From Candidatus Nanohalarchaeota archaeon (lineage in GTDB: Archaea; Nanohalarchaeota; Nanosalinia; Nanosalinales; JAFCCC01), in the NCBI GenBank assembly GCA_017610385.1, contig JAFCCC010000001.1, positions 1-64,000 on the forward strand: a stretch of DNA of 64,000 nt, given 5' to 3'. The position numbers and the translations under genes are program-made. The notes beneath the pieces were generated by a model that had not been told where the DNA came from, searched no databases, and worked only from the letters and a program-made list of their open reading frames with translations. Shown one piece after another: positions 39,590 through 61,897 of the stretch; position 1 is the stretch's first letter; every line of letters starts with the position of its first letter.

Positions 39590-39675
39590 GCCTTGGTAGC
39601 TTAGCTGGTAGAGCGCGTGGCTGTTAAAATTTTGCAGTAACCACGAGGTCGCAGGTTCAAGTCCTGCCCAAGGCG
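39590..39675 (+). tRNA. tRNA-Asn(GUU) with 13-nt intron 39627-39639 (37/38)
   Basis: cloverleaf; BHB CTGT/GCAG with TA|A bulges. Confidence 0.95.
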
Positions 39676-45370: not shown

Positions 45371-45508
45371 GCCACAGTGGCTCAATTGGCAGAGCAGCTG
45401 CTTCGTATTGTAATGAGGAGGACACTTATTCCGATAAAATATGAGGACGTGAACACCCCCCGAACAAGAATCAGCAGCAGGTTGTGGGTTCAACTCCCAT
45501 CTGTGGCT
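45371..45508 (+). tRNA. tRNA-Thr(CGU) with 65-nt intron 45408-45472 (37/38)
   Basis: acceptor GCCACAG/CTGTGGC; GCTGC-TTCGTA|A-GCAGC; U73; BHB with one mismatch. Confidence 0.93.
45413..45463 (+). ncRNA. box C/D sRNA inside the tRNA-Thr intron
   Basis: ATGAGGA-11nt-CCGA-6nt-ATGAGGA-12nt-CCGA. Confidence 0.8.
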
Positions 45509-47607: not shown

Positions 47608-47721
47608 GCGGGGGTAGCCAAGTGGTCAACGGCGATAGGCTCAAGTACTGAATTTGAGATCTGATTTAATGAAGAAACCTATTCCCATAGGGGTTCGTCG
47701 GTTCGAATCCGGCCTCCCGCA
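47608..47721 (+). tRNA. tRNA-Leu(CAA) with 31-nt intron 47646-47676 (37/38)
   Basis: acceptor GCGGGGG/CTCCCGC; long variable arm; ATAGG-CTCAAG|A-CCTAT. Confidence 0.93.
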
Positions 47722-49112: not shown

Positions 49113-49218
49113 TAGCGAGAGATGGATTTGAATTCGACAGATTTGGCCATGACCAATAATCTTCCATCGACCTTCGGGTTATGAGCCCGACGAGCACTCC
49201 TGACTGCTCCATCTCGCT
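49113..49218 (-). tRNA. initiator tRNA-Met(CAU) with 31-nt intron 49133-49163 (53/54)
   Basis: A1-U72; GGG/CCC anticodon stem; BHB CGAT/GTCG with GG|A and AA|T bulges and AGATT/AATCT stem. Confidence 0.93.
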
Positions 49219-49268: not shown

Positions 49269-49970
49269 ATGTTCAAAACTTCGCCTGCTGTTTTAAATTT
49301 AAGTCCTAATCTTTCACGCTGTGTGGGGTTGTGGTTAGCGGAAGGAGATAATAAAACTAAATCAGAAATAACATTTACTAATTCTTGTGCCGATTTAGTT
49401 GACTTTTTTGCTGAGACAATTATTCAGGAATTTGCGTTCAAAGGAAATCCAAGAATATACTGTTATTCTCATGAAAATCTTATGAAACTAAAGAAAATTG
49501 GAATCGCCGATTTGCATCCTCTAAAGAAAATTGCATTCGAACGAATGGTTGAAACTTACAAAGAAATTCATTATCCTGCCCATTTTTTGAAAAATAGAAT
49601 TTGGAAAGATCTTAAAGTACCTCATACATCTCAACAACTTTCGAAAAAATCTGATCGTTCTATTGCGAGAATACAAGATATAGTGATACAGCTTAAGAAA
49701 GATGGTAAAATTAAAGATTTTAGAGTGGAAAGTACAAACTATTGGATTCGGAGTGATCAGAATATGATAATCATCTCCAACACAAAAAAGAAATATCTGG
49801 ATCTATTGGGAGCTGAAGCTCTGTCAATAAAAAAAATATCTTCTCATTTCGAAGTGAGACTGCGTTCTTCGTACAAAATTCTTAAGAGATTAGAACAATT
49901 GAGATTAATTAAAAAAGATAATCATAAATGGAGAAAAGTTCATACAAATAAGAAGGTGATTGTTTTGTGA
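49269..49970 (+). CDS. LAGLIDADG-like protein with C-terminal HTH repeats
   Basis: GLWLAEGD...ITFTNS; two wHTH-like segments. Confidence 0.6.
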   Translation: MFKTSPAVLNLSPNLSRCVGLWLAEGDNKTKSEITFTNSCADLVDFFAETIIQEFAFKGNPRIYCYSHENLMKLKKIGIADLHPLKKIAFERMVETYKEIHYPAHFLKNRIWKDLKVPHTSQQLSKKSDRSIARIQDIVIQLKKDGKIKDFRVESTNYWIRSDQNMIIISNTKKKYLDLLGAEALSIKKISSHFEVRLRSSYKILKRLEQLRLIKKDNHKWRKVHTNKKVIVL

Positions 49971-50674
49971 AAGAAATTAAACTAATATTAGGCATCGATG
50001 AGGCGGGCAGATCTTGAAAGTCTCTTGGTTTTCAGGGGCCCAAAGGGCCTGTAATCGGTAGCATGTTCGTAGCAGGGGCAGTCATAGAAGAAAACCGAGA
50101 ATCTGAATTAAAAAAACTGGGAGTAAAAGACTCTAAAATGCTCAAAGAAAAAGATAGAGAAAGAATGGCTGCGGAATTACCCGGAATTCTTAATAAATAC
50201 GCAGTTAAAGAAGTTACAGCTATGCAAATCGATGAATTAATGAAAACAATTAATTTGAATGTTATTGAAATGCAAATGTTCGCTAAAATAATTCAAGAAT
50301 TAAAGCCAGATAAAGTAATAATAGACCTTCCGGAAAATAATGCTGAAAAATTCATCTTGAAAGTAAAAAAATTCATGGATCCAAAACAGTATAAAAATCT
50401 TGAGTTTGTTGCAGAACACAAAGCAGATGAAAATTATCCGATTGTAAGTGCAGCTTCAATTTTAGCGAAGAGTGCAAGAGAAAAACATGTAAAAGATCTT
50501 TATGGGGAATATGGTTATTTCCGAACAGGTTATCCTCATGATGAAGACACAATAAATATGCTTGAAAGGTATGTTAAAGCAAACAAAAAGCTTCCAGAAA
50601 TAGCCAGACATTCATGGAGTACATCTAAACGAATTTTAAAGAAGTTCGCCCAGAAAAAATTAGGGCAATTTTGA
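49967..50674 (+). CDS. rnhB: ribonuclease HII, spliced: join(49967..50010,50044..50674)
   Basis: AGGTGA Shine-Dalgarno plus GTG; splicing restores ILGIDEAGRGPVIGSM; DSK, KAD, VSAASILAK, GYP. Confidence 0.92.
50011..50043 (+). other. 33-nt BHB mRNA intron in rnhB
   Basis: GGGC AG|A TCTTGAAAG...TTTTCAGGG GCCC AA|A; contains in-frame TGA. Confidence 0.88.
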
Positions 50675-61351: not shown

Positions 61352-61897
61352 ATGTCAATTACAGGGACGCTCGCACAAAATAAAGTTAGAGTTACAAAAG
61401 AAATAGATCAGATTCACTCAGAAAAATATTATGGAAAAATAATTTCTGATTCTGGAAAAGATGTATTAGAATTATCTCTAACAGAAACGATGCATCTAGT
61501 CAATAAAGGAGAATTAACATTAAAGGACGGTAGAAAAAAATTAAATAATGAAGTAGTTTACGAGCGATTCTGCGAAATCGATGCAGAATTTCCACAGAAA
61601 TACACAGTTTATGCGGATTTGCGGGAACGAGGATATATTGTAAAAAGTGGTTTCAAATTTGGTACACACTTTAGAGTTTATTCCAGAGGAGTAAACCCTT
61701 ACAAAGAAGGCCAAAAAGAACAAAAAGAACATACTAAATGGGTTGTACATGCAGTTCCTGAAAATTATACATTATCTTATCAAGAAATGTCAAGATCTGT
61801 CCGTTTGGCTCAAAACATTAGAACTAAAATGCTTTGGGCGGTTGTAGATTCGGAAAATGAAGTCACGTACTATGAGATATATCGTTTAAGACCATAG
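61352..61897 (+). CDS. endA: tRNA-intron (BHB) splicing endonuclease, catalytic subunit
   Basis: VYADLRERGY, GFKFG.HFRVY, EH, VRLAQNIRTK. Confidence 0.95.
   Translation: MSITGTLAQNKVRVTKEIDQIHSEKYYGKIISDSGKDVLELSLTETMHLVNKGELTLKDGRKKLNNEVVYERFCEIDAEFPQKYTVYADLRERGYIVKSGFKFGTHFRVYSRGVNPYKEGQKEQKEHTKWVVHAVPENYTLSYQEMSRSVRLAQNIRTKMLWAVVDSENEVTYYEIYRLRP

Follow-up and report, generated by a model that had tools for sequence, protein, structure and literature searches.

A probable bulge-helix-bulge mini-intron in the RNase HII gene of a nanohaloarchaeon and an apparent LAGLIDADG endonuclease remnant beside it

The pre-mRNA of cbf5 in Crenarchaeota reportedly contains an intron, described by Watanabe in 2002 and by Yoshinari in 2006, and it is with this intron that the element considered here can be compared most closely. 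The element lies in rnhB, the gene for RNase HII, on a 64,000-nucleotide stretch of DNA from Candidatus Nanohalarchaeota archaeon, which was analysed as a whole and is called the window below (positions 1-64000 of contig C13 of genome G000, an assembly of 0.79 Mb, 32% G+C and 18 contigs that is 93.5% complete). The 33 nucleotides (nt) at 50011-50043 of the window are, judged from sequence comparison and predicted folding, very probably a mini-intron of the bulge-helix-bulge (BHB) type that would be spliced out of the rnhB pre-mRNA by EndA and RtcB. According to Yokobori 2009 (PMC2738675), the cbf5 intron is likewise a short EndA-type intron (16-44 bp) within a protein-coding open reading frame (ORF); it sits inside the codon of a catalytic residue, forms an 'unconventional' BHB, is too small to encode a nuclease and is patchily distributed, with gains and losses, and the candidate intron of rnhB appears to resemble it in each of these respects. 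The two differ in host gene, in the labels of their carriers (Asgard, DPANN, Hadarchaeota and others for rnhB, two crenarchaeal orders for cbf5) and in the partial linkage of the rnhB intron to an adjoining free-standing LAGLIDADG gene. Moreover, the splicing of cbf5 was shown by cDNA and EndA assays, whereas that of rnhB is inferred only.

A second point of reference is provided by the BHB introns of archaeal tRNAs and rRNAs, which share with the rnhB insert the two bulges across a 4-bp helix, the flanking helices and the (here predicted) cuts 2 nt 3' of each strand, as well as the proposed enzymes, EndA and RtcB, both encoded in G000, a genome rich in interrupted tRNA genes. Unlike those introns, the rnhB insert resides in an mRNA, its 3' bulge is 4-5 nt long, and its exon halves are codons, in which each base has to suit both the protein sequence and the helix. 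Schwarz 2020 states that the BHB motif is known in 'one mRNA', cbf5 of Crenarchaeota, besides that study's own one mRNA substrate (PMC7714728). In the portions at hand, a 2025 paper on EndA structure (PMC12397907) cites the cbf5 work only, and neither a 2026 review of non-canonical splicing (PMC13149111) nor a 2026 preprint on Asgard tRNA introns mentions an archaeal mRNA intron. No paper joining rnhB or RNase HII with BHB introns was found in the literature searched, to which supplements and subscription journals did not belong. A third described system comes from phages, where 'collaborative homing' pairs an intron with a free-standing endonuclease gene next to it; examples are the psbA group I intron of cyanophage S-PM2 with the adjacent F-CphI (PMC6083498) and mobE / I-TevIII of T4 (PMC2790892).

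The RNase HII relatives of the window protein are labelled Nanohaloarchaeota. An earlier, sequence-only reading of this DNA had observed that the called ORF at 50063-50674 (203 amino acids, aa) lacks the N-terminal DEAGRG motif, that the motif is encoded upstream of it from a GTG at 49967 behind a Shine-Dalgarno sequence, and that 33 nt with an in-frame TGA interrupt it. All of this held, with the reading frame, Pfam and the 3' end of the 16S rRNA in agreement. The parts of the gene, as proposed, are as follows.

49955..49959, plus strand: Shine-Dalgarno-like GGTGA, 7 nt 5' of the GTG start, with a presumed function in initiation
49967..50010, plus strand: rnhB exon 1, from the GTG to the AG of the Arg codon, encoding (M)KEIKLILGIDEAG + AG
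50011..50043, plus strand: predicted BHB-type mini-intron of 33 nt, with an in-frame TGA at 50015-17
50044..50674, plus strand: rnhB exon 2, beginning with the last base (A) of AGA and continuing as GPVIGSMF... up to its TGA stop

The GTG is the earliest start codon downstream of an in-frame TAA (49949-51) and overlaps the TGA with which the preceding ORF ends, the two together reading GTGA; the GGTGA is complementary to the 16S 3' end of G000, ...GGATCACCTCC. From this GTG the frame reads VKEIKLILGIDEAGRS*KSLGFQGPKGPVIGSMF..., and the insert, which sits after DEAGR, keeps the reading frame. Positions 50011 and 50044 are both A, so that the borders of the insert can equally be placed at 50011-50043 or 50012-50044; removal of either yields DEAGRGPVIGSMF, and only with the 33 nt removed is the DEAGRG motif of the window gene contiguous. 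When the frame was read through, the stop being written as X, Pfam RNase_HII (PF01351) matched it with E=3.4e-38 and was covered from position 1 to 198 of its 199, which makes the upstream piece a part of the RNase HII domain. When the rnhB genes of relatives were aligned, as the earlier reading had proposed, a contiguous DEAGRG was found in 28 of the 29 loci inspected, 25 of them continuing with GPVxG and the other three with GSVFG, GAVLG or GPAIG; the remaining locus, L007, fell outside the DEAG.G regular expression, and its rnhB can be aligned stop-free from residue 7 onwards. An unbroken GIDEAGRGPV(I/V)G is likewise present in the two closest proteins (73-74% identical).

The fold of the insert was taken as the minimum-energy structure of 49991-50062, for which pair probabilities were also computed. 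Its energy is -25.7 kcal/mol, with a modest z of -1.96, and it consists of these predicted elements.

49992-99 with 50054-62, plus strand: further helix continuing the outer helix
50001..50004 with 50047..50050, plus strand: outer helix AGGC/GCCU, exon with exon
50005..50008 (exon) with 50038..50041 (intron), plus strand: central helix GGGC/GCCC, 4 bp, pair probability 0.95
50009..50011, plus strand: 5' bulge AGA, 3 nt, predicted cut after 50010
50012-22 with 50027-37, plus strand: inner hairpin, 11 bp with a 4-nt loop
50042..50046, plus strand: 3' bulge AAAGG, 5 nt, predicted cut after 50043

The topology is that of a BHB substrate, with a central helix formed between exon 1 and the 3' end of the intron. 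Of the BHB described in the sequence-only reading, the GGGC/GCCC helix, the AGA bulge and the inner stem (11 bp, i.e., the 9 then noted plus 2) were recovered, while the clean 3-nt AAA bulge on the 3' side was not, that bulge being the 5-nt AAAGG; the motif of the window is a relaxed BHB and not the strict form. In most members of the family described below the 3' bulge comprises two intron bases, an A and the first G of exon 2, and beyond it lie the exon-exon pairs GGC/GCC and GACG/CGTC. The outer helix is built of the D-E-A and G-P-V codons, which are almost self-complementary, and cuts at AG|A and AA|A, each placed 2 bases past the 3' end of a central-helix strand, restore AGA-GGG-CCT, that is, R-G-P.

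The order-level and phylum-level searches for rnhB covered an identical set of 70 genomes, in 69 of which a match was found. Sixty-one align from residue 8 or earlier without stops, those of G050 and G051 are cut or partial, and in six, from four families, the gene is broken after the AG of the Arg codon at the identical site. These six are the window genome and five more Nanohaloarchaeota genomes, with inserts of 33 nt in G000 (one TGA) and G055 (two TAG), 32 nt in G057 and in G067, 30 nt in G026 and 29 nt in G019. Each folds alike with a differing hairpin sequence, and congeners of the carriers are without the insert (e.g., one carrier in four genomes of genus g9 and one in five of genus g13). 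The Pro/Ala wobble base that pairs in the outer helix is C or T in all six carriers versus 12 of 28 non-carriers (one-sided Fisher p=0.014, for lineages that are not independent). As a separate matter, rnhB of a 61%-complete relative was matched in two adjoining pieces (G001:C107:951-1609, minus strand; query residues 7-151 and 150-224), which suggests a frameshift or a sequencing error.

The site is interrupted far beyond this phylum. A metagenome search with the 203-aa protein confirmed no relative; the relatives were found instead with a DNA pattern that specified the D-E-A-G-R and G-P/A-V codons, separated by 24-40 inserted nt, and nothing else, so that no structure was demanded. In metagenomes it gave 73 matches, 66 of which passed the rnhB filter, and a variant that allowed any third bulge base gave 61 matches in species-representative genomes, 56 of them rnhB, with one more (L119) masked. 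Together these are 122 stretches beyond the six Nanohaloarchaeota genomes, from Asgard, Hadarchaeota, DPANN and other archaea. By label, the 56 genome loci are divided among Promethearchaeota/-ia (21), Hadarchaeota/-ia (8), Nanohaloarchaea and kin (5), uncultured Methanosarcinales (4), Woesearchaeota (4), Hodarchaeota/-aceae (2), Bathyarchaeia (2), Thorarchaeota (1), Micrarchaeota (1), Aenigmatarchaeota (1), Norongarragalinales (1) and unlabelled archaea (6). The frame of exon 2 is 190-279 aa long in 54 of them and 103 and 166 aa in the other two. The inserts measure 25-38 nt, and 49 of the 104 that are unique are not multiples of 3. By these sequence matches, the rnhB intron is not lineage-specific and appears widespread across archaeal phyla.

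One member of the pattern-matched set stands apart. At L072:1094-1160 (minus strand) an rnhB-like gene is interrupted at this site by 30 nt that are rich in GC, keep the frame and contain neither a stop nor a hairpin, and its downstream sequence is unusual (GAVFGHEDIPRL...). This insert may have decayed from an intron, or it may be translated as part of the protein; it was counted among the 104 fixed-anchor sequences described next and was left out of alignments A1 and A2. It was also seen that public 'RNase HII' entries of 202-206 aa (including P0009, P0022 and P0043) start with MFIGG or MIGSMF, just past the motif, and these are probably mis-called products of intron-bearing genes.

The pairing was assessed over the whole family, at first by counts for which the bulges served as fixed anchors and no alignment was fitted. 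Among the 104 unique sequences, central-helix positions 1-4 are paired in 102, 103, 96 and 92, and inner-helix positions 1-9 in 75-97%. At positions 1 and 4 of the central helix, where the exon strand supplies the wobble base of a Gly or Ala codon, at least five pair types occur, and these wobble bases covary with the intron. In a gap-poor seed alignment of 38 sequences of the 30-nt class, 91.8% were paired and 10 pairs had double changes, a level of pairing reached by none of 500 shuffles. A covariance model was built from this seed, to which neither the window nor the five other Nanohaloarchaeota genome loci belonged, and was searched with L090 and L095 left out. It matched 100 rnhB sites and one extra site, and its single match on the window, at 49991-50060, scored 43.9 bits (E=6.7e-10). 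In the alignment of all 101 matches, which was fitted to the structure of the model and contains kin sequences that inflate shuffle statistics, 93.7% of 1,962 cells are paired (93.3% in the outer helix and 93.2% in the inner helix) versus 34-49% in slid controls, 388 cells have double changes versus 114 +/- 8 in shuffles, and both-sided changes are seen at all nine modelled inner pairs. G:U pairs are frequent, which points to selection on the RNA of the rnhB strand.

The extra site of the covariance search is a partial match (L169:1512-1552, plus strand, 23 bits, E=0.0017, model positions 13-54), located about 4.3 kb upstream of rnhB on a contig labelled Woesearchaeota, and may be another BHB hairpin.

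The position of the cut was suggested by the same comparison. In 4 of the 56 genome loci (L128, L157, L165 and L171) the 5' bulge is AGT; joining after its third base would give Ser, while joining after base 2 gives AG+A, or Arg, which argues that the cut falls after base 2. On the other side, in the metagenome set, where the last insert base was left free, the third base of the 3' bulge is A and once G (AGG, also Arg), the sole exception being the C of L072, whose insert is not a hairpin. The cuts in cbf5 are predicted by the same BHB rule, between bulge bases 2 and 3 (PMC2738675). The proposal of the earlier reading that this is an EndA-type intron, cut after the second bulge base to rebuild AGA, was in this way strongly supported by same-site inserts in many lineages, by covariation and by the four AGT-bulge loci.

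The preferred explanation starts from the fold and adds a proposed mechanism. As sequence and comparison show, the D-E-A-G codons of exon 1 and the G-P-V codons of exon 2 pair as the outer helix, the final four exon-1 bases before AGA pair with the GCCC of the intron as the 4-bp central helix, and the remainder of the intron folds as the inner hairpin. A single EndA would then cleave both junctions (AG|A and AA|A), two bases beyond the 3' end of either central-helix strand, and RtcB, encoded at G000:C9:33031-34329, would ligate the exons, by which the AGA codon and the catalytic motif DEAGRGPVIG would be rebuilt and the 33-nt intron set free, probably as a circle. On unspliced RNA, translation would end at the TGA at 50015, and no active RNase HII would be made. 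The intron is a member of a family fixed at this exact site of rnhB in many archaeal phyla, part of which lies directly downstream of a free-standing gene for a double-LAGLIDADG endonuclease. The gene for the proposed nuclease also lies in the window.

61352..61897, plus strand: endA, tRNA-splicing endonuclease of 181 aa, with an N-terminal and a catalytic domain, an alpha-type subunit

Several points weigh against this explanation. The splicing of rnhB is inferred from sequence alone, in a multi-contig assembly that is 93.5% complete, and the fitted structure and kinship noted above for the 101-match alignment temper its statistics. The 3' bulge has 5 nt in the window and 4 nt in most relatives, the canonical number being 3. 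A loose BHB-like motif (4-bp central helix, inner helix of at least 5 bp, outer helix of at least 3 bp) is frequent by chance, with 7,780 matches in the AT-rich G000, so the fold alone is not significant; what goes beyond chance is its register with the insert borders set by homology, together with the comparative data. The one endA gene found in G000, where no second EndA subunit was detected with either Pfam model, is a lone alpha-type gene of 181 aa, and alpha4 EndAs were classically thought to cleave the strict BHB only (PMC5829648). Finally, the label of four matches is Methanosarcinales, whose EndA is said to be of the strict alpha'2 type. In favour of the explanation, the same paper (Kaneta 2018, PMC5829648) reports broad-range EndAs that bear a loop, in DPANN and Hadesarchaea as an addition to the alpha4 type and in Asgard on the (alpha-beta)2 type, and such loop-bearing EndAs go with heavily disrupted tRNA genes. 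Most carriers of the rnhB intron belong to groups with loop-bearing EndAs.

Among the 31 tRNA matches in G000, 16 exceed 90 nt and are probably interrupted genes. ARAGORN listed 27 tRNAs in the genome, many of them with doubtful 'introns'. The tRNA-Asn and tRNA-Arg genes have 13-nt introns, which are too short for an inner helix and would therefore present a bulge-helix-loop substrate to the EndA of G000. In the window itself, a tRNA match on the minus strand at 49113-49218 (106 nt, Rfam 41.5 bits), which adjoins the endonuclease remnant on its upstream side, is probably intron-bearing; long tRNA genes lie at 45371-45508 (138 nt) and 47608-47721 (114 nt), and one at 39590-39675 has a 13-nt mini-intron.

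The foremost alternative is that the insert is never removed, with rnhB being a pseudogene or giving an inactive protein from the ATG at 50063, and the hairpin being the DNA footprint of a selfish element that destroys the target of an endonuclease. The product of the gene caller is indeed the 203-aa ORF without DEAGRG, and the adjoining endonuclease gene, which is decaying in the window and in G057 (one TAG), shows that a selfish element is involved. However, exon 2 is open and conserved in 54 of the 56 species genomes, the Arg codon is preserved across the junction in the AGT-bulge loci, and the compensatory changes, with their G:U pairs and their reach into exon wobble positions, are of a kind that a dead insert does not need. 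In addition, rnhB was matched once and no RNase HI was found in G000 (93.5% complete), where rnhB appears to be the sole RNase H gene. A permanent insert is therefore considered unlikely.

It is still less probable that the insert is overcome during translation, with an amino acid incorporated at the TGA or with the ribosome bypassing the hairpin in the manner known from gene 60 of phage T4. Such a route would suit the window copy, in which the insert is in frame, has a single TGA and forms a stable hairpin after that stop. On the other hand, TGA is the stop codon that ends the upstream ORF as well as rnhB in G000, 49 of the 104 family inserts change the frame, and that of G055 has two TAG, from which it follows that the insert cannot be translated through. 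No 11-residue insert is present within DEAGR|GP in the 28 intron-less loci or the two closest proteins, bypassing from a take-off at AGA 50009-11 to a landing at AGG 50044-46 would go on out of frame, and the conserved exon-intron central helix would have no role. The least credible alternative, an artefact of assembly or binning by which the 33 nt would not be in the DNA of the organism, could appeal to a metagenome-type assembly in 18 contigs, but the exact 203-aa product occurs on four contigs, the longest of which has 232,170 nt versus 158,959 nt here and thus belongs to another assembly, and more than 100 independent assemblies carry same-site inserts of differing sequence.

Two further proposals of the sequence-only reading, both of which went beyond splicing itself, fared differently. 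A hairpin GGCCC-AAA-GGGCC that competes for the 3' splice site had been put forward as a means of regulated gating of rnhB. The complementarity exists, and it arises because the codons flanking the Arg are both Gly; its pair probability, though, is 0.011-0.015, that of the central helix being 0.95, and a fold made to contain it is less stable by 3.8 kcal/mol. With the alternative fold predicted at about 1%, gating by this hairpin is not supported. It had also been suggested that the lineage hides more such genes, for which two genome-wide scans of G000 for BHB motifs that join reading frames gave no excess over controls at wrong offsets. With the loose motif there were 188 candidates versus 182-190 at wrong offsets, in a scan that demanded at least 40 codons upstream and hence excluded rnhB itself; the strict scan found 95 motifs and 7 candidates, including rnhB, versus 7-9 at wrong offsets. 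The cbf5 gene of G000 is uninterrupted, a single open frame of 341 aa. A possible origin of the insert as a copy of a hairpin cassette in G000 was rejected, as blastn-short found no further copy of 50005-50050 in the genome and gave only chance words of at most 12 nt.

Directly upstream of rnhB lies the gene that links part of this intron family to homing endonucleases.

49269..49970, plus strand: apparent endonuclease remnant, ORF of 233 aa, internally deleted, with its TGA overlapping the rnhB GTG

Homologues of this ORF are 335-384 aa long and are encoded immediately 5' of intron-bearing rnhB, in the same orientation. Two LAGLIDADG motifs (CVGLWLAEGD and GFFAGEG) characterise the family, together with C-terminal winged-helix domains, of which the window copy retains the first motif and the winged helices, and is without alignment columns ~107-226, including motif 2. 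In the phylum search only query residues 3-41 and 164-335 match it, the region equal to residues 42-163 of a 335-aa homologue being absent. By its sequence, then, the ORF is a remnant that seems to have lost its nuclease core by in-frame deletion, and not an intact enzyme. Pfam found a TrmB winged helix-turn-helix domain in the window copy and LAGLIDADG_3 in three of four full-length homologues (26.9-32.9 bits, cut-off 22.5). The model of one full-length homologue (predicted local distance difference test score 92.7) matched the folds of WhiA, the bI3 maturase, E-DreI, I-DmoI and I-Tsp061I in Foldseek, with E values of 8.6e-6 to 7e-5 and a target-normalised template modelling (TM) score of up to 0.61. 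A PDB sequence search with the endonuclease-family profile returned winged-helix regulators only; the LAGLIDADG assignment is made because of the Pfam and fold matches. On the evidence of that model the family would share its fold and two motifs with the intron-encoded enzymes I-DmoI and I-Tsp061I of archaea, and, like the bacterial regulator WhiA, it joins a LAGLIDADG fold to a C-terminal helix-turn-helix; unlike I-DmoI and I-Tsp061I, it is encoded by a free-standing gene that is not intron-borne and has two extra winged-helix domains. Acidic residues of both motifs, E15, which is invariant, and E121, which is at least 90% conserved, presumably correspond to the catalytic residues of I-DmoI, and their conservation argues for a nuclease rather than a WhiA-like regulator.

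Strong matches to the endonuclease were obtained in 5 of the 70 phylum genomes (G019, G055, G067, G057 and G000), each directly upstream of the interrupted rnhB. The gene is accordingly present in five of six intron-bearing versus none of 61 intron-less Nanohaloarchaeota genomes, with G026 having the intron and no endonuclease gene; the one-sided Fisher p of ~5e-7, calculated with all 63 other rnhB-bearing genomes as non-carriers, is overstated, kin not being independent. When a carrier and a non-carrier of genus g13 are compared, homology resumes at the first bases of exon 2 and the endonuclease gene is an indel of ~1 kb. Across all carriers, the gene was found at 12 of the 70 unique loci for which the sequence extends 1 kb or more upstream, or 13 with L133, where the ORF overlaps the rnhB start and fell outside the distance filter, and at none of the 34 loci of the 30-nt intron class, to which most Asgard-labelled matches belong. 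The link between endonuclease and intron is not general across carriers.

A second decaying copy, an endonuclease gene with one internal TAG, was noted at G057:C67:10275-11282 (= L163:2275-3282, minus strand). Weak matches to the LAGLIDADG region (E ~1e-4) at G064:C54:15395-15682, G067:C2:32433-32717 and G055:C1:35368-35661 sit within open frames of 1184-2348 aa and may be inteins in large proteins.

By analogy with the phage systems, the intron and the neighbouring LAGLIDADG gene might together form one mobile unit, an archaeal form of 'collaborative homing', a tentative idea that falls a little short of being probable. The endonuclease would cut intron-less rnhB in the near-invariant DEAGRGP stretch, repair would copy the endonuclease gene along with the tiny protein-spliced intron, and the intron would then protect its carrier from its own enzyme. 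The window would represent a late stage, with the endonuclease decayed and the intron stranded, and the endonuclease-free 30-nt class, with most of the Asgard-labelled matches, would be the end state. As in collaborative homing, the endonuclease gene lies beside and not within the intron-bearing gene, the intron occupies a highly conserved coding stretch of the type that such enzymes target, and, among the Nanohaloarchaeota and with G026 excepted, the two are present or absent together. Unlike in the phages, the rnhB intron would be protein-spliced (BHB) and not self-splicing, the host is a cellular archaeon, the window copy is truncated, and the cleavage of intron-less rnhB is only putative. 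With the core of the window endonuclease lost, the intron here has most likely been left behind as a passenger, which the host has to go on splicing out.

If the BHB reading of these inserts is correct, the splicing of protein genes by the tRNA machinery would be wider than the searched literature indicates, and gene callers would systematically mis-annotate intron-bearing rnhB as N-terminally truncated. For the Asgard archaea, the closest prokaryotic relatives of eukaryotes, it would mean an added case of an interrupted protein gene. The LAGLIDADG link offers a testable route for the spread of mini-introns, and, if the homing unit is real, it would provide a mechanism by which BHB introns too small to encode anything could invade protein genes and would account for their insertion into catalytic motifs, of which cbf5 offers another instance.

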